Source of the DNA: Chitinophagaceae bacterium UBA2467 | Lineage (GTDB): Bacteria; Bacteroidota; Bacteroidia; Chitinophagales; Chitinophagaceae | Reading direction: 5' to 3' | Assembly: GCA_002342205.1 (NCBI GenBank) | Contig: DDPN01000161.1 | Coordinates: forward strand, 5,501-39,295 | DNA: 33,795 nt | Part shown: positions 7,223-29,292 of the stretch, piece by piece | How the letters are laid out: each line of letters opens with the position of its first letter | How positions within the stretch are numbered: the first letter of the stretch is position 1 | Notes under the pieces: model-generated | The model's database searches: none | What the model was told of the DNA's origin: nothing | Seen by the model: only the letters and a program-made list of their open reading frames with translations | Translations under genes and position numbers: made by a program

Positions 7223-7264
7223 TCCCTAACGAATTTGGGCCCGAAATTAAGATAAAAACCCCGA

Positions 7265-9019
7265 TTAGTAATCGAGGTCCAGGCGTAGTCTTTCCTTTAA
7301 TTGCTGGACTAAAGGGTAGCGCTTGACCATTTCTTGATATCGTTCTTTGGAGGTGAGAATACCTTCTGTAGGATTTTGTTCCTTTTTTTCCTGCGCGATC
7401 ACGGAAAACTGGAGTGCTTTATTTCGTAATTGCTCCTGTAAGTAAGCGTAAATATGATTTCTTTCAGCCTCGACAAATCGCTGTTCAATGTTGCTGGAAG
7501 TAAGTACTTCAAAACTGTTTTCATCAATGATGCGAAGTGTGGCTGCATCGAAAGGCTGTACGGCAGGATTTTTGGCATCGCGCAAGATTTGTGTGTAGCT
7601 TTTCCAGGCTTGTGTCAATGCCTCTATCTCCAATGGAGTAGATTGAGCTTCGGTATTTTGCAGATTATCCTGTTTAAACTGCGCACGAATTTTGCTTAGC
7701 GCATTCAGTTTTGCGGTAGGTTGTACACGTGCAGGAGGAGCTTTTTCCAAAACAGCTTCATCAATGGTTAATCGGGGTTGACGTGCTGGTTCAGTAACTT
7801 TTGGTTGAGCCATCAATGGAGTTGGCTGTGGTCCGTAGGGAATGATTCGACTATGTCTTAAGCCTGCCGTGACATCAGTCATTTTTTTTTTGACGAGGGC
7901 TTCTCCCTCGGTGCTCAATGTCAAAGCTTGTTGAAGGTAGCAAAGCCGAATCAGTGTCATTTCAATAAAAAGTCGTTTGTTACGTGCGCTTTTGTATTGT
8001 ATTTCAGCTTCCGTCAGCAAATTGAGCATGCTGATAAGTGTAGCGGTAGATAAGCCGGCTGCTGCCGTTTGATAACGGTCTTTAAAACTCTCCACTACAT
8101 CTAATAGTTGCACTGCTTTTTTATCTTGACAAACCAAGAGATTTCTTGTGAACTCAGCCATTCCCCCCAGAAAAAGTTCTCCTTCAAACCCTTTTTGATT
8201 GATCTCATCATATAGTAATAGCGCTCCCGATAAATCTTGCGTTTGAATTTGGGTTAGGAGACGAAAAAAATAATCTTCATCCAGAATATTTAAATGCTCT
8301 AGCGTCTGAGCATATTTTAATTCTCCATTTGTAAAACTTACTATTTTATCGAGCAGACTTAAGGCATCCCGCATGCAGCCTTCACTTTTTTGCGCGATGA
8401 TTTGAAGTGCTGGTTTTTCGGCATTGATTTTTTCTTTTTTACAAATGCTCTCTAGGTGAGCGACTGTATCAGCAGTAGTGATGCGTCGAAAATCAAAAAT
8501 TTGACAACGACTTAAAATCGTGGGTAGAATTTTATGTTTTTCGGTAGTTGCCAAAATAAAAATGGCATAGGAGGGAGGTTCTTCTAATGTTTTCAAAAAA
8601 GCATTGAAGGCTGCCGTAGATAACATGTGAACCTCGTCTATCACATACACTTTATAGCGCCCACCCTGCGGTGCAAATCGAACCTGTTCTGTCAATGTAC
8701 GAATGTCATCGACTGAATTATTGGAAGCGGCATCTAACTCAAAGTAATTGATGGATCCACCTTCACGAAAGGAAGTGCAGCTTTCACATTTGTCACATGC
8801 TTCTCCTTCTTTGGTTGGCTTACTGCAATTGATTGTTTTTGCCAAAATACGCGCACAGGTTGTTTTCCCAACACCACGGGGTCCACAAAAAAGAAAGGCG
8901 TGAGCCAGTTGCTGGTTGCGAATGGCATTTTTTAATGTTGTGGTAATATGTTCTTGTCCAACAACAGTATCAAAGTGCTGCGGTCTGTATTTACGGGCAG
9001 AAACGACGAACCGATCCAT
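7265..9019 (-). CDS. dnaX: DNA polymerase III subunit tau/gamma
   Basis: ARKYRP, Walker A GPRGVGKT, Zn module C...CDKCESC, IDEVHML, FNAFLKTLEEP, SRC motif. Confidence 0.97.
   Translation of the reverse strand: MDRFVVSARKYRPQHFDTVVGQEHITTTLKNAIRNQQLAHAFLFCGPRGVGKTTCARILAKTINCSKPTKEGEACDKCESCTSFREGGSINYFELDAASNNSVDDIRTLTEQVRFAPQGGRYKVYVIDEVHMLSTAAFNAFLKTLEEPPSYAIFILATTEKHKILPTILSRCQIFDFRRITTADTVAHLESICKKEKINAEKPALQIIAQKSEGCMRDALSLLDKIVSFTNGELKYAQTLEHLNILDEDYFFRLLTQIQTQDLSGALLLYDEINQKGFEGELFLGGMAEFTRNLLVCQDKKAVQLLDVVESFKDRYQTAAAGLSTATLISMLNLLTEAEIQYKSARNKRLFIEMTLIRLCYLQQALTLSTEGEALVKKKMTDVTAGLRHSRIIPYGPQPTPLMAQPKVTEPARQPRLTIDEAVLEKAPPARVQPTAKLNALSKIRAQFKQDNLQNTEAQSTPLEIEALTQAWKSYTQILRDAKNPAVQPFDAATLRIIDENSFEVLTSSNIEQRFVEAERNHIYAYLQEQLRNKALQFSVIAQEKKEQNPTEGILTSKERYQEMVKRYPLVQQLKERLRLDLDY
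7875..7910 (-). other. Putative recoding cassette in dnaX (hairpin/SD-like + A10 + UGA C UGA)
   Basis: mRNA reads CGAGGG-AGAAG-CCCUCG-UC-A10-UGA-C-UGA at codons ~371-382. Confidence 0.7.
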
Positions 9020-9058: not shown

Positions 9059-10222
9059 TTATAAAATGGGGTGTCGCTCAAAAGGAAGACTACGGTCAAA
9101 CTGATAGCGCCAGGTGATTAGGCGACGTGTTAGATAGGTATCGCCCAGCCCCTCTGCCACATTGATCATTTTCGGGTTAAAATCTCCTATCCATTGCAGT
9201 TCGTAGTAATTGTATTTGTGTAGCGCTTGCACCACAAATTTTGCTTCATTGATCATAAAAGCATCTACTCCTTTCCCTTGATGCTCTGGAACAATGCCAA
9301 ATATGATTCCGGTAAATCGTGGGTTTGGCTTTGTCCATTTGACCCATAGAAATTTCAATTTGTGGTACAAATCAAATTTTCCATTCAGGTACTTAAACCA
9401 TTGATTGAGATCGGGAATATTCAAAAAAATTGCAATGGGTTCTTCATTGTAATAAGTGAACCAGACTATTTTTTCGTCCATCACTGGTTTCATTTTTCGA
9501 AACATCGCAATGGCCAATTCTTTGCTAATCTCTTTAAGGCCCCCATGTCCAGCCCAAGCTTTGTTGTAGACGATAGAGAAGTCAACGGCAAACTTGTCTA
9601 AGTCTTTTTTGGTCGCATGTACGGCTTTGTAATGGGGATCTTTTTTTAATTCTGCGTGACGGTCCAATAGTTTTTTATTGATTTCTCGGGTGGGGTCGAG
9701 GCCGTAACAAACCTGGTTAAAAAAAACTTCAAACCCGTACTGTTCAAAAAGCGTCCGGTAATAAGGTTTGCTATAACTCATGCAATAGAGTGGGGGTTGA
9801 AAACCCTCCACTATCAGTCCCCACCATCGATCCCGTTCCCCAAAATTGATGGGTCCGTCCATAGCCCCCATCCCTTTTTGTGACAACCATTCTTTGGCGG
9901 TATCAAACAATAAATTGGCCGCCTGTTGGTCATTGATACAGTCAAAAAAACCAACTCCACCCACCGGAAAACGGTCCCCTTTTGTTCTATACTTTTTATT
10001 TACAAAAGCTGCAATGCGTCCAATTAGCTTCCCTTGCTCATCTTTTAGCACCCAGCGAATGGCTTCTCCAAAGCGAAAGGCTTTATTTTTCTGGGGGTCA
10101 AAAACCTCTTCTACATCCTTATCCAAGGGACGAATATAGTTGGGCTCTCCTTTGAAAAGTTCCACATTTACACGCAGAAAATCTCGTTGCCCTTTCCGAT
10201 CTTTTACCTCCACAATTTGCAT
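9059..10222 (-). CDS. YghO-like double-GNAT acyltransferase; candidate bacterial ceramide synthase
   Basis: GRIAAF, GFFDCINDQ.AANLLFD.A..WL, MDGPINF, GLIVEGF.PP and acyl-CoA-binding GIVPEHQGKGV; 387 aa. The fold call is firmer than the function. Confidence 0.6.
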   Translation of the reverse strand: MQIVEVKDRKGQRDFLRVNVELFKGEPNYIRPLDKDVEEVFDPQKNKAFRFGEAIRWVLKDEQGKLIGRIAAFVNKKYRTKGDRFPVGGVGFFDCINDQQAANLLFDTAKEWLSQKGMGAMDGPINFGERDRWWGLIVEGFQPPLYCMSYSKPYYRTLFEQYGFEVFFNQVCYGLDPTREINKKLLDRHAELKKDPHYKAVHATKKDLDKFAVDFSIVYNKAWAGHGGLKEISKELAIAMFRKMKPVMDEKIVWFTYYNEEPIAIFLNIPDLNQWFKYLNGKFDLYHKLKFLWVKWTKPNPRFTGIIFGIVPEHQGKGVDAFMINEAKFVVQALHKYNYYELQWIGDFNPKMINVAEGLGDTYLTRRLITWRYQFDRSLPFERHPIL

Positions 10223-10226
10223 GGGG

Positions 10227-10234
10227 CAAATGTA
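10227..10234 (-). promoter_or_regulatory. -7 element TACATTTG for the GNAT gene
   Basis: Exact TAnnTTTG, 4 nt before ATG 10222. Confidence 0.65.
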
Positions 10235-10313
10235 GGAAAGCCAGACTTCCTATCACGTTTTCCACCTTCTGCAAACAGTCAATTTTTCTTTTCATTTTTT
10301 GCCCTACCGCCCC

Positions 10314-10321
10314 TACCTTTG
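10314..10321 (+). promoter_or_regulatory. -7 element TACCTTTG for atpDC
   Basis: Exact TAnnTTTG about 50 nt upstream of the atpD ATG, followed by an A-rich leader with no SD, as is typical of Bacteroidota. Confidence 0.7.
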
Positions 10322-10366
10322 CGGCCTGAAAAAGCAGGTCGGTCTAGACCTGTTCAAAAACCTTAA

Positions 10367-11869
<1,503 letters not shown>

Positions 11870-15078: not shown

Positions 15079-15537
15079 ATGACAGGCTTTCTTGGAGAAT
15101 TTGAGGCAACACTGGACGCGAAGGGGCGTTTCTTGTTACCTGCCGGATTTAAAAGGCAGGTGGCGGGGGACGAGCTACATCGCTTTGTCATCAATCGTGG
15201 TTTTGAGAAATGTCTAGCGCTTTATACGCTTCGTGAATGGGAGCCCTTATTTGAAAAAATCAAAGGGTTGAATGAGTTTGATCCAAAGCAGCGCGAGTTC
15301 AGAAGAGCTTTTCTCAATGGGGCAACATTTGTAGAGCCCGACACTGCTGGTCGCATTTTGCTGCCACCCAATTTGAAAGCCTATGCAGAATTGGGTAAGG
15401 ACATCATCATTGCATCATCAGGTAATAAAATGGAAATCTGGGATAGTAATAAGTACAAAAAGATCTTTGACTCTTTTTCTTCGGATGCTTTCAGTGAGCT
15501 GGGAAGAGACGTCATGGGAGGTGGAACAATGAATTGA
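15079..15537 (+). CDS. mraZ: Transcriptional regulator MraZ
   Basis: Two SpoVT/AbrB-like repeats with DAKGR and DTAGR motifs; head of the dcw cluster. Confidence 0.96.
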   Translation: MTGFLGEFEATLDAKGRFLLPAGFKRQVAGDELHRFVINRGFEKCLALYTLREWEPLFEKIKGLNEFDPKQREFRRAFLNGATFVEPDTAGRILLPPNLKAYAELGKDIIIASSGNKMEIWDSNKYKKIFDSFSSDAFSELGRDVMGGGTMN

Positions 15538-15546
15538 TTTAACACG

Positions 15547-16458
15547 GTGCAGTCAACGTATCACATACCTGTTCTGCTCCGTGAAGTCATTGATTCATTA
15601 CAAATCCGTCCGGATGGCGTTTATGTGGATTGCACATTTGGAGGTGGCGGACATGCGCGTGCTATTTTGGAGCAGTTGGGGCCAAAAGGAAAGTTGATTG
15701 CGTTTGACCAGGATGCAGATGCGCAACAAAATCTCCCAAAGGATGAGCGGTTGCTTTTTGTTCCTCAAAATTTTCGTCATCTGCAACGCTTTCTGCGATT
15801 ACACAAAGTGAGTGGGGTAGATGGACTCTTAGCTGATTTAGGAGTAAGTAGTCACCAGTTTGATGAAGCGGCGCGTGGGTTCTCCACACGTTTTGATGCG
15901 GCACTGGATATGCGAATGGATCAGCGCGAGTCTAAAACTGCGTGGCAGGTAGTTGAAACGTATTCAGAATCCGCTTTGCACAAAATTTTTGAGCAGTATG
16001 GCGAGGTGACCAATGCCAAAACACTTGCAAAAGTTATTGTTCAAGCGCGGAAGTCGCAGTCATTACGCACCATTGAGGGCTTTAAGCAAGCTGTTCATGC
16101 TGCTGTAAAGGGAAATCCGAATAAATACTTTGCCCAGGTATTTCAAGCACTTCGTATCGAAGTAAATGATGAGGTAGGTTCACTACGTGAGTTGTTACAA
16201 CAATTATCTGCAGTGATGAATCCCAGAGGCCGCGTTGCTATCATCACTTTTCATTCATTAGAAGATCGACTGGTCAAACATTTTTTCCGTGCAGGTACGC
16301 TCGAAGAAAAAGAAGAAAATCCTTTTTGGTCAGCACCGGTAAAGAAGGATTGGCAATTGATTAATAAAAAACCAATTGTTGCTGGCAAAGAAGAGCAAGA
16401 AAAAAATTCACGTTCTCGCAGTGCCAAATTACGCGTTGCGGAAAAGTGTCAACCATAA
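15547..16458 (+). CDS. rsmH: 16S rRNA m4C1402 methyltransferase RsmH (MraW)
   Basis: HIPVLL, DCTFGGGGH, DLGVSSHQFD, LDMRMD, FQALRIEVN, TFHSLEDR, RSAKLR; GTG start. Confidence 0.97.
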   Translation: MQSTYHIPVLLREVIDSLQIRPDGVYVDCTFGGGGHARAILEQLGPKGKLIAFDQDADAQQNLPKDERLLFVPQNFRHLQRFLRLHKVSGVDGLLADLGVSSHQFDEAARGFSTRFDAALDMRMDQRESKTAWQVVETYSESALHKIFEQYGEVTNAKTLAKVIVQARKSQSLRTIEGFKQAVHAAVKGNPNKYFAQVFQALRIEVNDEVGSLRELLQQLSAVMNPRGRVAIITFHSLEDRLVKHFFRAGTLEEKEENPFWSAPVKKDWQLINKKPIVAGKEEQEKNSRSRSAKLRVAEKCQP

Positions 16459-16478
16459 TTGAAATTATATCAACCAGG

Positions 16479-16820
16479 ATGTCCACAGAAAAAGCACAAG
16501 TTGAAAATAAGCAAGACTGGAAGCGATGGCTGAATTATCAGTCTATTGTGCAGCAGGTCCCTTACTTTCTTTTTCTGGCCTTTTTGGCAGTGTGTTATAT
16601 CTACAACGGACACCAGGCTGATAAAACGATTCGGGCAATCAACCGTACGGAGCGTGAGGTGAAAGAGTTGAATTATGAGTATAAGACAGTCAAGGGAGAA
16701 TTGATAGCACGAAGTAAACAAAGTGAATTAATAAAAGCAGTAGAACCCCTCGGATTGAAAGAGTTGATAGTAGCACCAATTGTTTTGGTCGACAGTTCCG
16801 CTCCTCAACCGGCTCAATAA
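16479..16820 (+). CDS. ftsL: FtsL-like cell division protein
   Basis: Single TM helix followed by a coiled coil, between rsmH and ftsI. ATG 16479 preferred. Confidence 0.8.
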   Translation: MSTEKAQVENKQDWKRWLNYQSIVQQVPYFLFLAFLAVCYIYNGHQADKTIRAINRTEREVKELNYEYKTVKGELIARSKQSELIKAVEPLGLKELIVAPIVLVDSSAPQPAQ

Positions 16821-16825
16821 AAACA

Positions 16826-18958
16826 GTGGAAGTAAAAAAAGACATATTGTGGAGAGTCTATCTCTCTTTTATCGGACTAGCCTTATTGGGCGTGCTAGTG
16901 GTAGGTCGCGCTTTCTATATTCAACGAGTAGAAGGGGCTTACTGGAGAAATTTAAGTGATAGCTTACACCAACGTTTTGTAACACTTGATGCACAACGAG
17001 GAACTATTTACAGCGAAGACGGTCAGTTTTTAAGTACTTCGGTTCCCACTTTTGATATCTATCTAGATCTGTGCGCAGATGGATTACGTGAGAAAAAGGG
17101 AAAGCGATTCAGAGAAAATATTGATTCATTCAGTATCGCCCTATCTGCCTTGTTTCAGGATAAAACAGCTGCAGCTTATAAGTCCGAAATCGTAAATGCC
17201 TGGGAGAAGAAATCTCGCTATTACCCTCTCAAAAAGAAATTGAATTTTGCTACGTATAAATTGTTCCGCCAATTACCACTGGTTCGATTAGGTGCGAATC
17301 GAAGTGGGGTCATTGTGGAAACAAGTAGTAAGCGTTTGGTACCATTTGGAATTCTTGCCGGTCGCACCATTGGATTATCCCGAGAGCATCTTGCCAGTGA
17401 TGGAAAAGTAAAAAAACAAAATGTTGGTATTGAAAAGAGCTACGACTCCGTATTAAGTGGGCGTGACGGGCAAAAATTAATTCGCTTTGTTTCGGGTGGT
17501 GCTGCTATTCCAATAGCTGGTTACGAAACTGAACCTGATCACGGAAAAGATGTATACACTACATTGGATCTTCGTTTACAGGATATTACGGAAACTGCCT
17601 TGATGCGAATGATGTTGCAAAGCGAGGCGCTTTACGGCACTGCAATCGTGATGGAGACAGCCACTGGAAAGATTAAAGCCATTGCAAATCTTGGAAGACG
17701 TCCGGATGGTCATTACTGGGAAGATGACAACTATTCCTTGCGTACAACAGAACCTGGCTCCACTATAAAGCTGGCCACTTTATTATCTGTTCTAGAAAAA
17801 AAGACTAGTAAGATTAGTGATCCTGTTGAAGTGGGTAGTGCAGGTAAAGCGATGGTGGGCCCTAAACTAGTATACGATGCGGAACGGTCCCCCAAGCCAT
17901 TTTTAACGGTAGCCGAGTGTTTTGCACATAGTTCCAATGTTGGAATGAGTAAACTGGCGCTAAAGGCTTTTGGTAAAAATCCTAGTGAGTTAAAGGAGTA
18001 TTTACAGCGTTTTCATTTAGATACTCGCTCACCCATTGATCTCATGAATGTGCCTAAGCCTCGTATGGCCCCATTGAATGAAAAGGGAAGTGCTTTGGGT
18101 AATATGCTTTGGATGAGTTTTGGATATGCATTACAAGTAAGCCCATTACATACACTCACTCTTTACAATGCAGTGGCTAATAATGGGGTCATGATGAAGC
18201 CCTATTTAGTGAGCCGTGTACAACAAGGAGGAATTATTTACAAAGAATTTACACCTACCATCATTGATGAAAATATTTGCAGACCCGATGTGATTGCAGC
18301 AGCAAAAACCTCTATGGAAATGGTGGTATCAGAAGGTACAGCACGTCGGGCTTTTGAGGGGATGCCTTTTGCAGTAGCTGGAAAAACTGGAACAGCGTTG
18401 GTAGCGGACGGACCTATCAAATACAGTGACAGAGTTTATCAGGCATCCTTTGTAGGATACTTCCCAGCTGATCGACCTCAATATAGTTGTATTGTGGTCG
18501 TACGCACCAAGCCTTTTGCGGCATCTCACTATGGCGGAACGGTAGCAGCGCCTGTGTTTCGTGAAATCGCGTTGAAAGCGTATGCATTGTTTGTTGACCG
18601 TAAGGATGCTTCGCAATTCGCAATGAACAGAGATAGCTCACTTTATTACTATGCAGGCTATGCCCCGGATATTCAAAAGATTTATCGTTCACTTGACTTG
18701 AAATACACGGATTCTATTGCAAACGGGTCATGGGGAAGAGCGTATGCCGAAAATGGAAAGGCTATTATCAAAACACAACCTGTGCGAAAGCAAGTGATGC
18801 CGAATGTGAGAGGCATGGCGTTGAAAGATGCTCTTTTTCTTTTGGAAAATATGGGCGTACAAGTACAAGTGAGAGGAAGAGGAAAAATTGTATCACAATC
18901 TATTCCGCCAGGAACTGCTTTGGACAGACCACTGCAGTTGTTGTTGGAATTGAGTTGA
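16826..18958 (+). CDS. ftsI: Septal transpeptidase FtsI/PBP3 with C-terminal PASTA domain
   Basis: N-terminal TM, RGTIY, SxxK (GSTIK), SxN (HSSN), KTG (GKTGT), PASTA MPNVRGM.LKDA..LLE..G; GTG start. Confidence 0.93.
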   Translation: MEVKKDILWRVYLSFIGLALLGVLVVGRAFYIQRVEGAYWRNLSDSLHQRFVTLDAQRGTIYSEDGQFLSTSVPTFDIYLDLCADGLREKKGKRFRENIDSFSIALSALFQDKTAAAYKSEIVNAWEKKSRYYPLKKKLNFATYKLFRQLPLVRLGANRSGVIVETSSKRLVPFGILAGRTIGLSREHLASDGKVKKQNVGIEKSYDSVLSGRDGQKLIRFVSGGAAIPIAGYETEPDHGKDVYTTLDLRLQDITETALMRMMLQSEALYGTAIVMETATGKIKAIANLGRRPDGHYWEDDNYSLRTTEPGSTIKLATLLSVLEKKTSKISDPVEVGSAGKAMVGPKLVYDAERSPKPFLTVAECFAHSSNVGMSKLALKAFGKNPSELKEYLQRFHLDTRSPIDLMNVPKPRMAPLNEKGSALGNMLWMSFGYALQVSPLHTLTLYNAVANNGVMMKPYLVSRVQQGGIIYKEFTPTIIDENICRPDVIAAAKTSMEMVVSEGTARRAFEGMPFAVAGKTGTALVADGPIKYSDRVYQASFVGYFPADRPQYSCIVVVRTKPFAASHYGGTVAAPVFREIALKAYALFVDRKDASQFAMNRDSSLYYYAGYAPDIQKIYRSLDLKYTDSIANGSWGRAYAENGKAIIKTQPVRKQVMPNVRGMALKDALFLLENMGVQVQVRGRGKIVSQSIPPGTALDRPLQLLLELS

Positions 18959-18974
18959 CATAAATGAACGAAAA

Positions 18975-20435
18975 GTGAAGTTGATTGAATTGTTTGAACA
19001 GATTTCAGTTCAGTCTATTCAAGGATCAATGGAAACAGAGATTCTCGAGTTGGCAACTGATTCGCGTCAAGTGAAGAAGGGAACACTTTTCATTGCGGTA
19101 AAAGGAACAAAGGTTGATGGCAATGAGTTCATTGAAAAGGCTATTGCAGCGGGTGCTGTCGCAATTGTTTCGGAGCACAGCCCTCAACAACCTGTATCTG
19201 CAGTTTGGATACAGGTTGAAGATGCCACCGCTGCAGTAGGTTGGATAGCTGCTGGTTTTTATCGAAACCCCAGTGCTTCAGTGAAAGTAACGGGAGTCAC
19301 GGGAACCAACGGTAAAACAACAATAGCAACCTTGCTATACAAGCTCTTTACAAGACGGGGATATACATGTGGATTAATTAGTACGGTAGAAAATCGTATT
19401 GGTGATAAAGTGGTACCTGCCACACATACGACACCTGATGCAATCAACTTGCAACAACTTTTATATCAAATGAAGAATGCAGGTTGTACGCATGTGTTTA
19501 TGGAGGTGAGTTCTCACGCTATTCATCAACATCGAATTGCCGGAATTTCTTTTGCGGGTGGAGTCTTTAGTAATATCACACATGATCATTTGGATTATCA
19601 TCAAACTTTTGATGCCTACATCCAGGTTAAAAAATCCTTCTTTGATCATTTGCCTACTTCTGCATTTGCGATTAGTAATGCAGATGATAAGCGGGGAAAA
19701 GTGATGTTGCAAAATACCCATGCGCAAAAAAAATATTATGCACTCAAAACCACTGCTGATTTCAAGGGTAAAATTTTGGAGAATACCTTGGAAGGATTGC
19801 AAATGGATATTGATGAACAGCCGGTACACTTTCGATTGATTGGTTCATTCAATGCCTATAATCTGCTAGCTGTTTATGGTGCTGCTGTTGAATTAGGTCT
19901 GAATAAAATGGACATATTGACCACCTTGAGTGAATTGACAGGAGCACCCGGACGATTTGAGTGTTTGGTCTCGCCTCATGAAAAGTTGATGGTAATTGTT
20001 GACTATGCGCATACACCTGATGCTTTGTTGAATGTGCTCACCACCATTAAGCAATTCAGAACACCTGATCAGCAAATTACTACTGTTACAGGTTGCGGAG
20101 GAGACAGAGATCGTACCAAACGACCCTTGATGGCAGCTGCTGTGTGTGCACATAGTGATCGAGTCATTTTTACCAGTGATAATCCACGCAGTGAAGATCC
20201 TGCAACTATCATAAAAGATATGGAACAGGGTGTAAGTGCGGCCGATCAAAAAAAGTATATCCCCATTTTAGATAGAAAGGAGGCAATTAAAACTGCCATC
20301 GCTTTGTCTAAGCCTGCCGATATCGTGCTGGTAGCTGGAAAAGGTCATGAGACGTATCAGGATGTAAAAGGAGTGAAAGAATATTTTGATGATCGCGAAG
20401 TAGTAAAAGAATGGTTTTTAAAGCTGAATAAATAA
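18975..20435 (+). CDS. murE: UDP-MurNAc-dipeptide:meso-DAP ligase
   Basis: GVTGTNGKTT, MEVSSH, DHLDYH, DYAHTPD, DNPR (meso-DAP specificity), AGKGHE; GTG start. Confidence 0.97.
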   Translation: MKLIELFEQISVQSIQGSMETEILELATDSRQVKKGTLFIAVKGTKVDGNEFIEKAIAAGAVAIVSEHSPQQPVSAVWIQVEDATAAVGWIAAGFYRNPSASVKVTGVTGTNGKTTIATLLYKLFTRRGYTCGLISTVENRIGDKVVPATHTTPDAINLQQLLYQMKNAGCTHVFMEVSSHAIHQHRIAGISFAGGVFSNITHDHLDYHQTFDAYIQVKKSFFDHLPTSAFAISNADDKRGKVMLQNTHAQKKYYALKTTADFKGKILENTLEGLQMDIDEQPVHFRLIGSFNAYNLLAVYGAAVELGLNKMDILTTLSELTGAPGRFECLVSPHEKLMVIVDYAHTPDALLNVLTTIKQFRTPDQQITTVTGCGGDRDRTKRPLMAAAVCAHSDRVIFTSDNPRSEDPATIIKDMEQGVSAADQKKYIPILDRKEAIKTAIALSKPADIVLVAGKGHETYQDVKGVKEYFDDREVVKEWFLKLNK

Positions 20436-20447
20436 AAAGAAAGTAAG

Positions 20448-21725
20448 ATGTTGTATCATTTGTTTGACTGGCTGAATGAAGAAGGGATTCGATTCCCGGG
20501 TAGCCGTGTCTTTGATTTCATCACTTTCCGTACGGCACTTGCTATTCTTCTATCTCTTTTTATAACACTGGTGTATGGAAAAAAGCTGATTCACTTTTTA
20601 CAACGCCATCAAATTGGTGAAAGTATTCGCGAAGAAGGATTAGCAGGTCAGGCAAGTAAGAAGGGAACCCCAACGATGGGAGGAATCATTATTATTCTGG
20701 CGATTTTAATTCCCACTTTATTGTTGGCTGATCTCACTAAAGTATATGTACAACTGATGATTGTTAGTACTATTTGGATGGGAGTGATAGGCTTTATTGA
20801 TGATTATCTCAAATTGAGAAGTAAGAGATTGGCACAAGAGAAAGGAGAGGAATATCGTAAGTCTAATGCAGATGGTTTGGCGGGTTGGTTTAAAATTTTA
20901 GGACAGGTTGGATTAGGGTTAACGGTAGGAGCTACTTTATATTTTAATACAGAGACAGTAATCTGGAGAGAGTACCGTGGAAAAAATCCTCAATCTGACT
21001 CTACCGTTTTTGCAAAAACTTTCAATGGGAAAACACATTACTACGTAGAAACAAAAACGCCCATTACGACTATTCCTTTTGTAAAAAACCATGAGTTTAA
21101 CTACTCTAAACTATTGCCTGTTGCCTGGCGTGATTATACCTGGGTGTTATATATTCTGATTGTCATCTTCATTATTACAGCTGTTTCCAATGGATCGAAT
21201 CTTACAGATGGATTAGATGGGTTAGCAACGGGCACGGCAGCTTTGATTGGTGTTTTATTGGGCGTTTTTGCCTATGCAAGTGGTAATCTGGTTTTTTCCG
21301 ATTACCTCAACATTATGTACATCCCCAATCTTGGTGAGCTTTCAGTCTACATTGCTGCGATGATTGGAGCTTGTGTTGGGTTTTTATGGTACAATTCATT
21401 TCCTGCACAATTATTTATGGGGGATACAGGGAGTTTAATGCTGGGGGGTGTGATTGCAGCGCTTTCTATTATCGTGCACAAAGAATTACTAATTCCAATT
21501 TTCTGCGGTGTGTTTTTGGTAGAGTCGCTCAGTGTTATTCTCCAAGTAGGTTATTTCAAATACACCAAACGTAAATATGGTGAAGGGAGAAGAATTTTTT
21601 TGAAAGCACCCTTGCATCATCACTACCAGGTGCAGGGCTATCATGAGGTAAAAATCGTGACACGATTTTGGATTGTGACAGTGTTATTGGTGGTATTAAG
21701 TATTGTAACCCTTAAGCTTCGTTAG
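20448..21725 (+). CDS. mraY: Phospho-MurNAc-pentapeptide transferase
   Basis: KKGTPTMGG, GFIDDY, NLTDGLDGLA, FMGDTGS, APLHHH. Confidence 0.97.
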   Translation: MLYHLFDWLNEEGIRFPGSRVFDFITFRTALAILLSLFITLVYGKKLIHFLQRHQIGESIREEGLAGQASKKGTPTMGGIIIILAILIPTLLLADLTKVYVQLMIVSTIWMGVIGFIDDYLKLRSKRLAQEKGEEYRKSNADGLAGWFKILGQVGLGLTVGATLYFNTETVIWREYRGKNPQSDSTVFAKTFNGKTHYYVETKTPITTIPFVKNHEFNYSKLLPVAWRDYTWVLYILIVIFIITAVSNGSNLTDGLDGLATGTAALIGVLLGVFAYASGNLVFSDYLNIMYIPNLGELSVYIAAMIGACVGFLWYNSFPAQLFMGDTGSLMLGGVIAALSIIVHKELLIPIFCGVFLVESLSVILQVGYFKYTKRKYGEGRRIFLKAPLHHHYQVQGYHEVKIVTRFWIVTVLLVVLSIVTLKLR

Positions 21726-21744
21726 GCAAGAGGGTAAAAATAAA

Positions 21745-23085
21745 ATGACAATGAAACTTGTCATCATTGGAGGAGGAGAAAGTGGAGTGGGGGCAGCCTT
21801 ACTGGCTAGCCAAATGGGGTATTCGGTTTTTCTCTCTGATGGAAGCTCTTTGAAAGAAAAATATCGTAGCGAACTCCATGAGAAAGGAATTGCTTTTGAA
21901 GAAGGGCAACATGATATGGATAAAATTCTGGCTGCTGACCAAATAGTGAAAAGTCCAGGCATACCAGAAAAGACAGCTGTCATGAAAGCCGTTCGCGCAA
22001 AAGGAATTCCTGTAATTAGCGAAGTGGAGTTAGCCTATCGGTTTAAAGGAGATAGTCGCATCGTGGCAATTACGGGTAGCAATGGAAAGACAACTACAAC
22101 TTCACTGGTCTATCAGTTATGTAAGTCGGCTGGCTTGGATGTAGCATTAGTAGGAAATATTGGCTACTCTTTTGCTCGACAAGTTGCACTGAAACCTCAT
22201 GCATTGTATGTAGTAGAGGTAAGTAGTTTTCAGTTAGACGACATTGATCAGTTTAGGCCCGACATTGCTATCCTAACGAATATCACCGAAGATCATCTGG
22301 ATCGTTACGAATATATTTTTCTTAATTATATCAAGAGCAAGTTTCGGATTACGATGAATCAACGGCCGCAGGATTTTTTCATTTACTGCGCCGATGATGA
22401 AGTGACCCAACAATATATCAGTTCATTCACTATTCAATCAACTCAACTGCCGATCAGCATGAAAAGAGAAGTACCAAATGGAGGGTTTATTAAAGACGGA
22501 GACATGTACATACGTACAGGTAATGAAGTTATGACCATGAGTGTATTTGATTTTGCGCTGAAAGGCAAGCATAATCAATACAACACCATGGCGGCTTGTG
22601 TAGCAGCGGCAACGCTAACCATTCGAAAAGATAAGATCAGAGATGCAGTTCAGCATTTTGAACAACTCGAGCATCGAATGGAATTTGTTGCGACTGTACG
22701 TGGCGTAGAGTTTATCAACGATAGTAAAGCAACCAATATCAATTCTACTTGGTATGCATTAGAAAGTATGACAAAGCCAACTGTTTTGATTTTGGGAGGC
22801 GTAGATAAAGGAAATGATTATTCATTATTACTAGAGGGTGTGAAAGAAAAAGTAAAAGCAATTATTTGTTTGGGTGTTGACACCAAGAAGATTCATGAGG
22901 CTTTTGAAGGAATAGTTCCTACTCTAATTGATACACAAGACGCTGCCGAAGCGGTACAGTTGGCTTTTCGTCTTGCCAGTAAAGGGGATGCTGTGTTATT
23001 GAGTCCAGCTTGCGCAAGTTTTGACTTATTTAAAAATTATGAAGACAGAGGGCAGCAATTTAAAAACGCTGTTCGAGATCTATAA
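21745..23085 (+). CDS. murD: UDP-MurNAc-L-Ala:D-Glu ligase
   Basis: GGGESG, KSPGI, ITGSNGKTT, EVSSFQL, DHLDRY, NDSKATN, LSPACASFD. Start may be 21751. Confidence 0.97.
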   Translation: MTMKLVIIGGGESGVGAALLASQMGYSVFLSDGSSLKEKYRSELHEKGIAFEEGQHDMDKILAADQIVKSPGIPEKTAVMKAVRAKGIPVISEVELAYRFKGDSRIVAITGSNGKTTTTSLVYQLCKSAGLDVALVGNIGYSFARQVALKPHALYVVEVSSFQLDDIDQFRPDIAILTNITEDHLDRYEYIFLNYIKSKFRITMNQRPQDFFIYCADDEVTQQYISSFTIQSTQLPISMKREVPNGGFIKDGDMYIRTGNEVMTMSVFDFALKGKHNQYNTMAACVAAATLTIRKDKIRDAVQHFEQLEHRMEFVATVRGVEFINDSKATNINSTWYALESMTKPTVLILGGVDKGNDYSLLLEGVKEKVKAIICLGVDTKKIHEAFEGIVPTLIDTQDAAEAVQLAFRLASKGDAVLLSPACASFDLFKNYEDRGQQFKNAVRDL

Positions 23086-23087
23086 AC

Positions 23088-24368
23088 ATGGAAACAACCA
23101 GAGACATACGATTGACCGAGCTCCGGAATAGTTTTACCACGGAACGTTTGTTGCAAAAAACAAAGGGTGATAAAGTTATTTGGGCCTTGGTAGTGCTACT
23201 TACCTTAGTTTCCTTGTTAGCAGTGTATAGTGCTACAGGCTCGCTTGCCTACAAATTTTATAAGGGTAATACAGAAGTTTATTTATTCAAACAGGTTGCA
23301 TTTATTCTTGGAGGACTTCTCGTGATCTATGTGGCGCATCTGGTTAATTACACGTTTTATTCAAAGGCAGCACGAATCGTTTATCTGGTTTCAATTCCAC
23401 TTTTAGTCTACACGTTGTTTTTTGGCGTAACAATGAATGAGGGAAGTCGCTGGATTCGATTGCCCTTGATTAATATGACAGTTCAAACCTCTGACCTGGC
23501 AAAACTCGCTTTATTCATGTATCTGGCTCGGTTACTTAGTAAGCGGCAAGATATGATTAAGGAGTTTAAAAAAGGCTATTTGATGGTTATCTGGCCCGTT
23601 GCGGTTACCTGCTTATTGATTGCTCCTGCCAATTTATCTACTGCATTACTCTTGGGTGCTAGTTGCTTATTGTTATTATTTATTGGAAGAGCGAGTACAA
23701 AACATTTATTAATTACCGTAGGACTGGCTTTTATTCCTATTACAATGCTGATTGCTGCTGCTGTTGTTAAACACCAGCAAGAAGAACCTGATGAGCCTAT
23801 CACTGTTGTGAAAAAAGAAGAAGGAGCATTGACAAGGCGTGTGGACACTTGGGTTAGTCGAGTTGAAAGTTTTATCTATGGTAGCACGGATGTTGATACC
23901 GATGAGTACCAAGTTAATCAAGCAAAAATTGCGGTTTCAAAAGGAGGATTGTTGGGTGTGGGACCAGGAAATAGTACTACACGCGACTTTTTACCACAGG
24001 CCTACAATGATTTTATTTATGCAATTATCATAGAGGAGTATGGTTTGTTGGGAGGAGGCTTTATAGTATTTGTGTATCTGGTGTTTCTCTATCGGTGCAT
24101 ACGAATATTTAAGCGTTGTCCATTTGCCTTTGGCGCATTTCTGGCATTAGGACTAAGCTTTACACTGGTCATTCAGGCATTAGCTAACATGGCTGTAACA
24201 GTCAATTTGTTTCCTGTTACAGGTGTTACGTTGCCATTGGTCAGTATGGGAGGAAGCAGCTTCATCTTTACCTGTTTAGCAATTGGAATCATTTTGAGTG
24301 TGGCACGAAATGTAGAACAATTAGAGGGGAAAGATAAAGAGGGAGATGCAAAGGCAGTGGCAGCATGA
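23088..24368 (+). CDS. ftsW: SEDS peptidoglycan polymerase FtsW
   Basis: Multi-TM, RWI.L, Q.SDLAK, GVGPGNS, LPQAYNDFIYAII.EE.G, PVTGVTLPLVSMGGSS. Confidence 0.95.
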   Translation: METTRDIRLTELRNSFTTERLLQKTKGDKVIWALVVLLTLVSLLAVYSATGSLAYKFYKGNTEVYLFKQVAFILGGLLVIYVAHLVNYTFYSKAARIVYLVSIPLLVYTLFFGVTMNEGSRWIRLPLINMTVQTSDLAKLALFMYLARLLSKRQDMIKEFKKGYLMVIWPVAVTCLLIAPANLSTALLLGASCLLLLFIGRASTKHLLITVGLAFIPITMLIAAAVVKHQQEEPDEPITVVKKEEGALTRRVDTWVSRVESFIYGSTDVDTDEYQVNQAKIAVSKGGLLGVGPGNSTTRDFLPQAYNDFIYAIIIEEYGLLGGGFIVFVYLVFLYRCIRIFKRCPFAFGAFLALGLSFTLVIQALANMAVTVNLFPVTGVTLPLVSMGGSSFIFTCLAIGIILSVARNVEQLEGKDKEGDAKAVAA

Positions 24369-25459
24369 GCAGACGAATCATTATAGCGGGAGGCGGGACA
24401 GGGGGGCATATTTTTCCGGCATTAGCTATTGCTGGTGCATTGAAAAAAATGGATTCGTCTATTGAAATTCTCTTTGTAGGCGCAAAGGGAAAAATGGAAA
24501 TGGAAAAAATTCCGCAAGCGGGTTATCCCATCGAGGGACTCGATATAGCGGGTTTCAATAGAAGCTCTTTGATAAAGAATATTGGACTTCCCTGGAAACT
24601 GCTTAAAAGTTTTTGGCAGGTCAGAAAAGTATTGCGTCAATTTAAACCTGATGCCGTACTAGGTGTGGGTGGTTACTCAAGTTATCCTGTTCTACGATTA
24701 GCGCAGGTAAAAGGTATCCCTACATTTCTGCACGAGGCAAATTCTTATGCAGGTCGAAGCAACCAGTTGTTGGCTAAAAAAGTGAATTGTGTTTTTGCAG
24801 GTGTTTTGGGACTAGATCGATTTTTCCCAGCTGAAAAGGTTTGTTACACAGGCAATCCGGTAAGAGATGTTATTACGCAGCCTTTGCCAAGTTTGGAAGA
24901 GAGTCGTAAGCACTTTAAGCTGGATTCAAATCGACCAACCTTATTAGTTGTTGGTGGAAGCTTAGGGGCCCGTTCCATTAATGAAGCCATCAGCAATGGA
25001 TTGGACCGATTATTAGCTGCTAATATCCAGGTGATTTGGCAAACAGGAAAACCCTTCGCATCACAAGCTGAAAAAGTTTGTAGTGGTAAGCAAGGTGTTT
25101 GGACGGGCGCATTCATTCAGCAGATGGAAATGGCTTATGCTGCATCCACGCTCATTGTTGCACGAGCAGGTGCGATGACCGTTGCAGAAATAGCAGTTGT
25201 AGCCAAGCCAGCCATTTTTATTCCGTTTCCGCATGCGGCCGAAGATCATCAAACCGCAAATGCAATGCAGTTAGTAAAGCGTCAAGCTGGGTTATTGATT
25301 GCTGATCATGAGGCAGCGACGCAATTGGTTTCTGCAGTAATTGAATTGTGTAGTGACGAAGAAAAACGCAAACAAATGACAGAACAAATTCGGCCATTAG
25401 GAATTCGAGATGCTGGTCAACGTGTTGCAGTCGAGTTATTGAAAAGGATAAAGGCTTAA
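24365..25459 (+). CDS. murG: Lipid II GlcNAc transferase
   Basis: GGGTGGHIFPA, GGYSS, HEAN, GNPVR, GGSLGA, RAGA, DHQ..NA. Confidence 0.97.
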   Translation: MSRRIIIAGGGTGGHIFPALAIAGALKKMDSSIEILFVGAKGKMEMEKIPQAGYPIEGLDIAGFNRSSLIKNIGLPWKLLKSFWQVRKVLRQFKPDAVLGVGGYSSYPVLRLAQVKGIPTFLHEANSYAGRSNQLLAKKVNCVFAGVLGLDRFFPAEKVCYTGNPVRDVITQPLPSLEESRKHFKLDSNRPTLLVVGGSLGARSINEAISNGLDRLLAANIQVIWQTGKPFASQAEKVCSGKQGVWTGAFIQQMEMAYAASTLIVARAGAMTVAEIAVVAKPAIFIPFPHAAEDHQTANAMQLVKRQAGLLIADHEAATQLVSAVIELCSDEEKRKQMTEQIRPLGIRDAGQRVAVELLKRIKA

Positions 25460-26871
25460 TGAAACAGATAGTCGTAAATACAGATTTGCTGCGGAGTCCA
25501 TTCAAGGGTACTGAGGGGATTGATCAGATCTGTTTTGTAGGTATTGGTGGAATTGGCATGAGTGCATTAGCTCGATTTTTTTTAGAAAGAGGAATTAGAG
25601 TAAGTGGATATGATAAAACCAGAACGGCGCTGACTCAACAATTGGAAAAGCAGGGAATGAACATTCATTATGAAGATCAAATTGAGAATGTTGATAAAGA
25701 GGCGACTGTTGTAGTCTATACTCCCGCTATACCAGGGGATCATCAAGAGTTGAACTGGTATAAAAAAAATGGGTATACAGTATGGAAGCGAAGTGATTTG
25801 CTTCAACGTATAACTGATAGCTCTTTGAACATTTGTATTGCAGGAACACATGGTAAAACTACCACTAGCACATTGGTAGCGCATATCCTTCGGGATAGCC
25901 AAATGGGTTGCAATGCTTTTTTAGGAGGAATTGCGAGTAACTACGAAACTAACTACTGGAGTAGTAGGACTAATTGCTGTGTGGTGGAAGCAGATGAATA
26001 TGACCGTAGCTTTTTGAAGTTGAAGCCGCAGGTTGCTGTCATCACAGCGATGGATCCAGATCATTTAGATATCTATGGTACTGCAGCAGAGATGGAGGAA
26101 GCTTTTTTGCAGTTCAGCAGTTTGGTGGCACCCGATGGACTGTTGATTTACAAAAAAGGTTTAAAGCGTGCAACAGAGCTACGGGCTAAGCAGCTATGCA
26201 GTTATCATCTGAGTGACACAACGGCGGATTGCTATGCAACAGACTTGAAAGTAGAAAAGGGTAGCTATCATTTTTCTGTTCATGTGTGTGGTAAAACACT
26301 AGCTGGTTTTGAGCTTTCAATGGGTGGATTGCATAATGTAGAAAACACAGTAGCTGCAGTTTCTATTGCGAGTATGCTTGGAATTGAGGAGAGTAAGATT
26401 AAAAAAGCGGTGGCTTCATTTCGAGGTGTGCAGCGAAGATTTGAAGTAATCTGGAAAGATGCAAATCGTGTGTGGATCGATGATTATGCGCATCACCCAG
26501 CTGAGTTGCAGGCCTTGATCACAGGCGTACGTTCGTTGTATGGAAGTAAAAAATGTACAATCATTTTTCAGCCGCATCTGTACACGCGAACAAGAGACTT
26601 GGCCAAGGAGTTTGGCGAGGCTTTATCAGGTGCGGATGAGGTGATTTTGTTGCCCATTTATCCTGCAAGAGAATTACCCATTGAGGGAGTGAGTAGTGAG
26701 TTGATTAAGCAAAATATAAATGACAAACCGGTATCACTCTTTGATAAGAATCAAGTGTTGAGCTGGTTTACTGAAGAAATGAAAAAAGAAAACGAACAAA
26801 ACATAATTATAACAGCAGGGGCTGGTGATATTGACCAGTTACTGCCAACTATGAAAAATATAATAAGGTAG
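25459..26871 (+). CDS. murC: UDP-MurNAc:L-Ala ligase
   Basis: GIGGIGMS, AGTHGKTTTS, EADEYD, DDYAHHP, FQPHLYTRT, GAGDI. Confidence 0.97.
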   Translation: MKQIVVNTDLLRSPFKGTEGIDQICFVGIGGIGMSALARFFLERGIRVSGYDKTRTALTQQLEKQGMNIHYEDQIENVDKEATVVVYTPAIPGDHQELNWYKKNGYTVWKRSDLLQRITDSSLNICIAGTHGKTTTSTLVAHILRDSQMGCNAFLGGIASNYETNYWSSRTNCCVVEADEYDRSFLKLKPQVAVITAMDPDHLDIYGTAAEMEEAFLQFSSLVAPDGLLIYKKGLKRATELRAKQLCSYHLSDTTADCYATDLKVEKGSYHFSVHVCGKTLAGFELSMGGLHNVENTVAAVSIASMLGIEESKIKKAVASFRGVQRRFEVIWKDANRVWIDDYAHHPAELQALITGVRSLYGSKKCTIIFQPHLYTRTRDLAKEFGEALSGADEVILLPIYPARELPIEGVSSELIKQNINDKPVSLFDKNQVLSWFTEEMKKENEQNIIITAGAGDIDQLLPTMKNIIR

Positions 26872-26873
26872 CG

Positions 26874-27863
26874 TTGAAAATAAAGAGAATTATACAGCGA
26901 ATTTTATTTTTCCTTTTCTGGATAGGAATTGGAACAGGCATGACGTTATTACTGGTCGCTGCAATTGGCCGTCGTAATAAAGAGCGATTCCGTTCTTATA
27001 CGATTGAAATCCAAGGGCACTATGGCGGTGCATTTTTAACGCAGGATTCTGTGGCCAGCTTATTACAAAGTCATACTGCAGGTGTGAGGGGAGAGTTGCT
27101 TTCGCTATTTAATATGCAGCAAGTTGAAATGAAATTGCAGCAACACCCATGGGTTCGAAAAGCACAACTCTATTTTGATAATCAGGATATTCTTCATGTA
27201 CGAATTATAGAAAAGAAACCACTCGCACGCGTATTTACGCAAAATGGAGCATCTAGTTATTTGGATGAGAGGGGTCAGCTGATGCCACTTGCTAGTTTCC
27301 GTACTGTAAAGGTTCCAGTCTTCACAGGCATTCCCGATAGTGCGGGGGTAAAAAATAAGGATAGCCTGCTACTCATTCAAATGCGTGATATGGCGCAGCT
27401 GATTGTTAATGATAGTTTTTGGAACGCACAAGTGGCACAGATTGATCGAACAGTTGATCAGAATTGGGAACTGGTACCGGTTGTAGGTGATCATATTGTG
27501 AAATTGGGTCAAGCAACTGATTTTCCTGCACAATTAAAAAAGTTATTCATCTTTTATAAGCAAGTATTGGTGAAGTCAGGGTTTAATCGATATCGAACCG
27601 TTGATCTCCGATTCGATAACCAAGTAGTAGCCGGTTATGGAGTGGGTCCACAGGTTGATTCCATCCAATTGCGAAAAAGTGTACAGCAACTCTTACAGCA
27701 ATCTCGTTTGGCAGATCTGGATACTTCAATTCGTTATTTGCCAAAGCCTTTGCAGCCATTGTTGAAAGATGATACCATTTCCGTTACTACCGAGTTAAAA
27801 AATAGTTTACCAATCGATACATCTGTTAGTATACAAAAACCCACAAAAAAAATAAACAACTAA
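26874..27863 (+). CDS. ftsQ: Cell division protein FtsQ/DivIB
   Basis: N-terminal TM, POTRA-like 'E.KL..HPWVRKA', DLRFDNQVV, located between murC and ftsA; TTG start. Confidence 0.85.
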   Translation: MKIKRIIQRILFFLFWIGIGTGMTLLLVAAIGRRNKERFRSYTIEIQGHYGGAFLTQDSVASLLQSHTAGVRGELLSLFNMQQVEMKLQQHPWVRKAQLYFDNQDILHVRIIEKKPLARVFTQNGASSYLDERGQLMPLASFRTVKVPVFTGIPDSAGVKNKDSLLLIQMRDMAQLIVNDSFWNAQVAQIDRTVDQNWELVPVVGDHIVKLGQATDFPAQLKKLFIFYKQVLVKSGFNRYRTVDLRFDNQVVAGYGVGPQVDSIQLRKSVQQLLQQSRLADLDTSIRYLPKPLQPLLKDDTISVTTELKNSLPIDTSVSIQKPTKKINN

Positions 27864-27874
27864 AAAACATCCCT

Positions 27875-29251
27875 ATGAACAACCAAAATCCCATCATTGT
27901 AGGTCTTGATATTGGGACAACCAAGATTGCAGTGATTGCCGGCCGTAAAAACGAGTTTGGCAAATTGGAGATCCTTGGATTTGGTAAAGCCAATTCCAAT
28001 GGTGTCAAACATGGTCAGGTCCTAAATATTGATGAGACCATTAAAGCTATTCGTACCGCACTCGACAACTGCTTTGCCTCTAATCCAAATTTGGAAATTG
28101 GCGAGGTGTATGTGGGAATTGCAGGTCACCACATCAAAAGTTTACAGACGCGCGGAGATATGGTACGCCACCGTACGGATGAAGAGGTTACACAAAAAGA
28201 AATTGATAAGTTGATTGATGATCAGTACAAGACCTATATCCCTGCTGGTGATCAAATCATCGATGTAATTCCGCAAGAGTTTACAGTTGATAATATTCCA
28301 AACATTGCCAATCCGATTGGTTATGGAGGAGTAAAAATTGGAGCTAATTTCCATATCATCACGGGAGATAAAAATGCAATTAGAAATATCAACCGTAGTG
28401 TTGAAAAGGCAGGCTTGTTTACTAAAGATCTAGTGTTACAGCCACTTGCTTCCTCAGCAGCTGTAATGGGACAAGAAGACTTAGAGGCGGGAGTAGCAAT
28501 TGTAGACATTGGGGGTGGTACAACTGACCTTGCCGTATTCAATGAGGGGATACTCAAGCATACAGCCGTGATACCATTTGCAGGTGAAAATATCACGAAT
28601 GATATCAAATCAGGATTAGGGGTATTGCGTACACAGGCGGAACAAATGAAAGTGCAGTTTGGCTCTGCATTAGCAAATGAAGCTAAGTCAAATGCCTATA
28701 TCACTATTCCAGGATTACGCGGAATGCCTGCAAAAGAGATCAGCGTAAAAAATCTAGCTAATATCATTCAAGCTCGTATGAGTGAGATTATGGATTTTGT
28801 GACCTATCATCTCAAGCAGGTGGGATTAGATAACAAGGCACTTAATGGCGGAATCATATTAACCGGTGGAGGTTCCCAATTAAAACACCTAATTCAGCTT
28901 ACGGAGTATGTGACTGGATTGAATGCACGGATTGGATTTCCCAATGAGCATTTGGCTGCAGGGCATATTGAAGAACTGTCTAAACCAACTTACTCTACGT
29001 GTATTGGTTTGATCTTAAAGGGGTATGACGATTTTGAACATAATCGTAAAGAGTTTGATAAAGGATATAGTAAAGTTGATGTTCCTTCTAACCTGCGTAA
29101 AACAGCTAGTGGTGAATTAGAGGCAGTACCTGAAGAAACAGAAATCAGCGAAGAACAAATGAGGAAGCGCCGTAATCTAACTGGCTTCTGGAGCAAATTC
29201 AAAGACCGTATCATCGATTTGTTTAAAGAAGAAGAAGATCGTCATTTATAA
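27875..29251 (+). CDS. ftsA: Cell division protein FtsA
   Basis: GLDIGTTKI, VDIGGGTTD, LTGGGSQL, C-terminal amphipathic helix FWSKFKDRIIDLF. Confidence 0.97.
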   Translation: MNNQNPIIVGLDIGTTKIAVIAGRKNEFGKLEILGFGKANSNGVKHGQVLNIDETIKAIRTALDNCFASNPNLEIGEVYVGIAGHHIKSLQTRGDMVRHRTDEEVTQKEIDKLIDDQYKTYIPAGDQIIDVIPQEFTVDNIPNIANPIGYGGVKIGANFHIITGDKNAIRNINRSVEKAGLFTKDLVLQPLASSAAVMGQEDLEAGVAIVDIGGGTTDLAVFNEGILKHTAVIPFAGENITNDIKSGLGVLRTQAEQMKVQFGSALANEAKSNAYITIPGLRGMPAKEISVKNLANIIQARMSEIMDFVTYHLKQVGLDNKALNGGIILTGGGSQLKHLIQLTEYVTGLNARIGFPNEHLAAGHIEELSKPTYSTCIGLILKGYDDFEHNRKEFDKGYSKVDVPSNLRKTASGELEAVPEETEISEEQMRKRRNLTGFWSKFKDRIIDLFKEEEDRHL

Positions 29252-29292
29252 ACTACTTACTAACCCATTCAATAATTCGTAAACTAACTTCC

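Follow-up and report, generated by a model that had tools for sequence, protein, structure and literature searches.

A predicted transcriptional-slippage site for gamma at a conserved A10 run in the intact dnaX gene of a Chitinophagaceae bacterium

Larsen et al. are said to have described, in 2000, programmed transcriptional slippage in the dnaX gene of Thermus thermophilus. In the accessible sections of the sources on this system, gamma is made by slippage on a run of nine A's (A9), with stops in both other frames (PMC1088944, PMC5009743), and runs of nine mark the slippage threshold in many bacteria (PMC1088944). The corresponding sections on Escherichia coli dnaX describe a -1 ribosomal frameshift on the heptamer A_AAA_AAG, with an upstream Shine-Dalgarno (SD) sequence and a downstream stem-loop (PMC3711429, PMC5009743), and a tau C-terminus that binds polymerase and helicase (PMC4756838). 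Antonov et al. (2013) collected 17 two-ORF dnaX genes that need a -1 shift, nine of them with ten A's, proposed transcriptional realignment for them and named three Chlorobi; the accessible text of the same paper takes shifting in both directions as a criterion for transcriptional realignment (PMC3711429). In Roseiflexus IS630, a nascent hairpin stimulates slippage, a result of Penno et al. (2015) that is described, in the part available, in PMC5009743. Gamma was discovered over 30 years ago, and why bacteria make it is still an open question (bioRxiv 2022.11.10.516041).

The gene considered here lies in a 33,795-nt stretch of DNA (the window) from Chitinophagaceae bacterium UBA2467, within an assembly of 1.71 Mb and 168 contigs that is 87.5% complete. 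Chitinophagaceae records form the majority among the window's nearest named relatives, and the sequencing runs that match the window best are lake, pond and freshwater metagenomes. ORF calling and domain matches place dnaX at 7265-9019 on the minus strand, as an uninterrupted 584-aa tau frame; the gene scores above the cut-off of TIGR02397 and reaches 683 bits against PRK14971, slightly below that model's cut-off of 685. It is the sole dnaX found in the assembly, where a search of its own genome returned one strong match; a second, weak match (33%) on another contig, C110, is probably holB. Pfam matches (PF13177, PF22608 and PF12169) assign clamp-loader domains I-III to residues 1-366 (7922-9019, minus strand), with domain III (PF12169) spanning residues 241-366, and residues 4-362 align to solved E. 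coli gamma chains, e.g., 1jr3. The A10 run occupies codons 377-380 (7882-7891, minus strand; T10 on the plus strand) and is the predicted slippage site. A preliminary description of the window had put this run where domains I-III end, and the Pfam boundary at residue 366 agrees; because domain III ends before the run begins, the predicted gamma would keep the whole clamp-loader core. Around the gene, a terminator-like hairpin at 7256-7280 (minus strand) overlaps the dnaX stop, with a pyruvate dehydrogenase E2 gene downstream, and a 387-aa ORF immediately upstream (9059-10222, minus strand) has no Pfam match up to E 1. The same holds for a 146-aa ORF at 79-519 on the plus strand, and the genes from mraZ to ftsZ at 15079-31131 (plus strand) form a division and cell-wall cluster of the usual kind.

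The coding strand at the site reads GTC AAA AAA AAA ATG ACT GAT, encoding V376-K-K-K-M380-T-D, and the A10-UGA-C-UGA layout reported earlier was confirmed upon recomputation. Loss of one A yields 379 aa ending in LVKKK, gain of one A yields 381 aa ending in KKKND, gain of two yields 380 aa, and gain of three restores a full-length product of 585 aa. The off-frame stops sit 0 and 2 codons behind the run: a TGA at 7879-7881 (minus strand) serves the frame with one A fewer or two more (predicted products of 379 or 380 aa), and a TGA at 7875-7877 (minus strand) serves the frame reached by one extra A or by a -1 ribosomal shift (predicted product of 381 aa). The run is also, as previously stated, the longest homopolymer of the window, the next being 12 other runs of 8. 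At the sequence level, the site has the three features of Thermus-type dnaX slippage, namely an intact tau ORF, a sense run of at least nine A's and nearby stops in both other frames, and gamma would here, as in Thermus, be translated from mRNAs that have gained or lost a number of A's not divisible by three. The two genes differ in phylum, in the run (A10 vs. A9) and in the predicted upstream hairpin found here; moreover, slippage and a 1:1 gamma/tau ratio were demonstrated in Thermus, according to the accessible sections of the Thermus sources, whereas here we infer slippage from sequence. On its own the site is unremarkable: with the residues fixed as K-K-K-M-T and the gene's own Lys codon use, the run is expected with a probability of ~0.73 and both stops with 0.27, the first stop being forced by those residues. 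Conditional on the residues, the A10 run and stops of this single sequence are not significant, and the case for recoding therefore rests on genome-wide run avoidance and on the relatives.

A/T runs of lengths 7, 8, 9 and 10 number 1449, 402, 24 and 1 in the assembly, and sense-strand A runs of the same lengths in crude ORF calls number 758, 222, 6 and 1. The dnaX A10 is the only A/T run of at least 10 in all 1.71 Mb and 168 contigs, and AAA-AAA-AAA is used in 3 of 188 KKK tripeptides, whereas codon usage predicts 70. The fall-off of runs at nine matches the slippage threshold given in the accessible text of PMC1088944. Runs are purged from this genome at the very length at which slippage begins, yet its longest is kept in an essential replication gene. 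The sister genome G010 likewise has its sole A10 in dnaX, and in G017 and G018 the dnaX run is one of three such sites in each; in G012 (11 sites) and G218 (more than 20 sites) it stands out less. One of the only six sense A9 runs in the ORF calls is found at G000:C51:6756, near codon 11 of a 636-aa ORF, with off-frame stops within a few codons; from a familiar motif, we take this ORF to resemble a type II topoisomerase subunit.

An assembly error at A10 is ruled out by bridging contigs from three sequencing runs of one study (X9, X10 and X11), which span the site with A10 and no indel, together with the same A10 in G010, whose dnaX differs at 175 of 1752 positions. Contigs were compared from seven runs (X9, X10, X11, X15, X16, X17 and X19). 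The RNA material comprised six RNA sets among 23 runs, in the form of assembled contigs, which drop variants. X9 is the sole RNA-filed run listed as bridging the site, again with A10 and no indel in contigs that lose variants. Coverage in X9 stays level at about 20-24 across pdhC, dnaX and atpD, and one of its contigs spans the divergent intergenic gap at 10222-10370; X9 is probably DNA carry-over despite its RNA filing, and because both properties look like DNA, it is uninformative on slippage. The RNA run X19 has four indels in its contigs and no others, at window positions 1296, 1570, 6748 and 14433; these are single insertions at homopolymers (T8, A4, T7 and T8), each in one low-depth contig, and could come from other strains or from stutter by the polymerase, during RT or during PCR.

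The comparative set comprised 200 fetched dnaX loci, of which 188 were unique and long enough; the 12 dropped were seven duplicates (L037, L047, L111, L112, L124, L127 and L144) and five truncated loci (L016, L030, L067, L096 and L099). A run of A9-A11 lies inside a 210-nt window placed where domain III ends in 157 of the 188 Bacteroidota loci (A9 in 42, A10 in 100 and A11 in 15; lengths of 7-8 in only two), against 0/766 equal control windows taken from the N-terminal coding part and 7/560 downstream. An even draw across the phylum had 198 matching loci, of which 90 were taken (the top 30 and a further 60 spread across families); the run is present in 64 of the 85 kept. The run occurs in all three codon phases across the 157 loci, and its length rather than its codon phase is what the relatives conserve. 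Among the 63 close relatives (loci with at least 65% identity), 60 have the run, and with codons redrawn synonymously at fixed residues as the expectation, the off-frame stops are strongly enriched: the immediate stop of the minus-one-A frame is found in 50/60 (20.8 expected), a stop of the plus-one-A frame within three codons in 57/60 (19.4 expected), and both in 49/60 (7.2 expected). The immediate stop is TAG in 23, TGA in 15 and TAA in 12 of those 50, and this swapping among the three codons shows that a stop has been retained repeatedly. Both off-frame stops lie no more than six codons from the run in 88% of the 108 genes with an intact frame, compared with 12% at background positions. Given the kinship of the loci and their uneven sampling, these counts are not independent events and overstate independence; as read from comparative sequence, they show selection across relatives on the run, on its place after domain III and on both off-frame stops. 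Free breakage of the run by AAG codons, or missing stops, among orthologs had been named beforehand as the outcome that would speak against recoding, and the run in 157/188 and both stops in 49/60 gave no such refutation.

The run is missing at its usual place in 31/188 loci and absent from the whole gene in 27, and is therefore dispensable in some lineages. The 27 include L160-L169, L085, L088, L135 and L136, whole clades and both named Bacteroidaceae records, and are candidates for natural tau-only genes or for users of another route. In four loci (L075, L079, L095 and L200), an A10-A11 run lies further along the linker, 170-270 nt past domain III, accompanied by both off-frame stops; these displaced runs would predict longer gammas of about 425-465 aa.

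The reading frame of the tau C-terminal domain behind the run is 0 in 108 of the 157 run-bearing loci, -1 in 40 and +1 in 9. An HMM built from intact genes confirms the tau C-terminus in 39/40 of the -1 loci (the remaining one is truncated) and in all nine +1 loci; the window gene and all 60 run-bearing close relatives are in frame 0. Thus 49 orthologs need a slip at this same run to reach the tau C-terminal domain. A FastTree phylogeny of the N-terminal part (186 rows) implies at least 20 changes of frame state, and five changes for the +1 state. The +1 loci are L103, L105-L108, L147, L023, L027 and L076, with one clade of five Flavobacteriales genomes, and in 9/9 the A run directly abuts the zero-frame stop. 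The single +1 cases with A11 (L027 and L076) could be assembly slips, which is unlikely for the Flavobacteriales clade; in L147 the A10 is unchanged and the additional base falls outside it. Genes in the +1 state are undecodable by a -1 ribosomal shift, and slippage of variable size serves all three frames. The presence of tau in frames 0, -1 and +1 behind the same run therefore favors transcriptional slippage over a -1 ribosomal shift. Like the two-ORF genes of Antonov et al., the site has a poly-A run, mostly of ten, at the gamma/tau boundary, and our split -1 relatives match their layout. Their 17 genes are split, all needing a -1 shift for tau, whereas the window gene is intact and would be missed by GeneTack-type screens for that reason; the +1 layout of our nine loci is not mentioned for the two-ORF cluster in the accessible part of that paper.

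Based on these comparisons, it is very probable that the A10 run is a conserved recoding site that yields gamma from dnaX, and the programmed tau/gamma recoding proposed in the preliminary description is strongly supported by the conserved run, the conserved stops and the shifting tau frame. We further consider transcriptional slippage the probable main route to gamma at this run, with somewhat less assurance. By the mechanism we propose from Thermus dnaX, the RNA-DNA hybrid over the run would consist entirely of A:T pairs, allowing the transcript to realign and to gain or lose A's. Messages with 10 or 13 A's would be translated to tau (66 kDa), and those with 9, 11 or 12 A's would meet a stop within two codons and give a gamma of 379-381 aa (about 43 kDa), which would retain the ATPase and collar domains and lack the C-terminal domain, to which polymerase and helicase are expected to bind. 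The second off-frame stop favors this route, since a -1 ribosomal shift alone has no need of it. Because slippage would supply every frame, an indel in the DNA at the run would not be lethal, and the occurrence of tau in frame 0, -1 or +1 in related species would follow from that tolerance.

A less certain component of the mechanism is a small nascent-RNA hairpin that might tune the slip rate. Folding predicts a 6-bp hairpin at 7894-7910 (minus strand) that ends 2 nt before the run, with a folding z of -2.9; its 5' arm doubles as an SD-like purine tract, and its outer pair is C-G here and U-A in G010. A strict stem of at least 6 bp is found in 27/157 run-bearing loci, against a 2-4% background, and in 5/60 close relatives. 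Three of the four run-bearing groups have their maximum of folding excess at the run, and it is strongest in the split -1 genes. A universal upstream hairpin found no support in the close relatives, where folding (-5.13) is no stronger than the synonymous null (-5.01). A hairpin this near the run could arise in the exit channel of the polymerase, by analogy with Roseiflexus IS630, and is unlikely to form inside the ribosome. The predicted stem-loop would share with IS630 its position immediately 5' of the slip motif; the Roseiflexus motif, as given in the accessible description, is T5C5 with a hairpin-dependent deletion in one direction, whereas dnaX has a plain A run as its motif and a hairpin in a minority of orthologs. 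We regard it as an optional helper, possibly a nascent-RNA stimulator.

The nearest competing explanation is that ribosomes make gamma mainly by a -1 shift at A_AAA_AAA, as they do in E. coli, with a single 381-aa product from unedited mRNA. An in-frame X_XXY_YYZ heptamer is indeed present, one tRNA-Lys(UUU) gene was found, the -1 stop is kept in 57/60 close relatives, and an SD-like tract about 11-13 nt upstream of the run pairs at -9.0 kcal/mol. That pairing was scored with the canonical anti-SD, which may differ from the host's own 16S end (a search of the assembly found no 16S 3' end), and it hardly departs from its synonymous null of -8.9; in the relatives the value is -5.50 against a null of -5.53. 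The apparent enrichment of an SD stimulator over other positions (-5.5 vs. -3.0) vanished under the synonymous null. The stimulatory heptamer A_AAA_AAG is absent here, where A_AAA_AAA is followed by AUG, and occurs in 2/60 close relatives; in E. coli, A_AAA_AAA is far weaker (PMC5009743, accessible text). No downstream stem-loop was detected (z of -0.21 here, mean z of -0.08 in the 60 close relatives), and the E. coli stimulators appear not to be conserved in the relatives. The window gene shares with E. coli dnaX, as the accessible sources describe it, an intact tau ORF, a gamma that ends soon past a Lys-codon A run and a close -1 stop, but it lacks A_AAA_AAG, the downstream stem-loop and a conserved SD, has a longer run together with another conserved stop, and predicts a gamma of ~380 aa rather than 431. 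Frameshifting as the main route, which leaves unexplained the 9-11 A's where seven would do, the third-frame stop and the nine +1 tau genes, is in our estimate unlikely. It may nonetheless contribute in split clades, since A_AAA_AAG is frequent in the split -1 genes (26/40) and all nine +1 runs end on a stop.

The remaining explanations are each very improbable. The hairpin beside a homopolymer looks terminator-like, and Caulobacter has a proteolytic gamma (bioRxiv 2022.11.10.516041), so that shortening might come from polymerase pausing and release at the hairpin and A tract, or from a poly-A/poly-Lys ribosome stall followed by rescue or proteolysis; the coding-strand tract, however, is A and not U, a terminator at the run was tried and rejected, with no terminator-like site called there on either strand, and such shortening neither requires the off-frame stops nor allows tau to lie out of frame in 49 relatives. 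Slipped-strand phase variation of the DNA, switching cells between tau and gamma alleles, would account for run lengths of 9-11 and for frame flips between close relatives (L074 vs. L076, L157 vs. L158). Tau, however, is the essential form (bioRxiv 2022.11.10.516041), and a gamma-only cell should die unless slippage at the level of expression rescues it; moreover, no length variant is present in the contigs of three runs or in the sister genome, and some frame flips lie outside the run with A10 kept, as in L147. Absence of any recoding, with a Lys triplet in an AT-rich gene and stops there by chance, agrees with the unremarkable probabilities computed above for K-K-K-M-T, but we give it equally little credence, because nearly all other KKK tripeptides of the genome are broken by AAG, the run and stops of the relatives lie far above their synonymous nulls, and 49 orthologs need a slip for tau. 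Transcriptional slippage at the A10 run thus remains our preferred route to gamma.

Besides the linker, gamma would lose the C-terminal region of tau at 7268-7630 (minus strand), in which an AlphaFold model places a KH-like domain and terminal helices. The model of the last 135 aa has a mean pLDDT of 73.6, with a core of about 90, and the domain is predicted to fold as a type-II-KH-like alpha/beta unit. Its best structural matches, both at Z 8.9, are with DnaA domain I (rmsd 2.6 over 79 aligned residues) and with a chain from mitoribosome assembly (rmsd 1.8 over 76). When the modelled C-terminus was compared by Foldseek for an identity with E. coli tau domain V, nothing matched at E 0.001 or better, no tau C-terminal structure was among the matches listed by either structure search, and the Pfam family DnaX_C gave a weak match in 1 of 101 members. 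By analogy with E. coli, the tau-only C-terminus of this organism may bind polymerase and helicase.

The mechanism itself is already known from Thermus, and the poly-A dnaX site was described in 2013 (PMC3711429, accessible sections), so that specialists may be only modestly surprised. The literature within reach of our search, which leaves most subscription papers outside it, contained no intact-frame site in Chitinophagaceae, no +1 layout and no dnaX upstream hairpin. A broader proposal, to which we assign about an even chance, is that most Bacteroidota dnaX genes, including those annotated as intact, carry a frame-agnostic slippage cassette (A9-A11, flanking stops and often a hairpin), and that efficient feeding of all three frames let the essential tau C-terminus move repeatedly. 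For annotation, the conserved run would mean that intact genes hide a second product and that genes split at the run are not pseudogenes or assembly errors. Most of the Bacteroidota sampled have the predicted slip site, 27/188 loci have lost it naturally and frame flips occur in nature, which widens the phenomenon to a large phylum and makes it open to test by synonymous AAG edits in a tractable, harmless member. If this picture is true, transcriptional slippage would be a phylum-scale route to gamma rather than a Thermus oddity, and the natural tau-only and three-frame variants could be used to ask what gamma is for.
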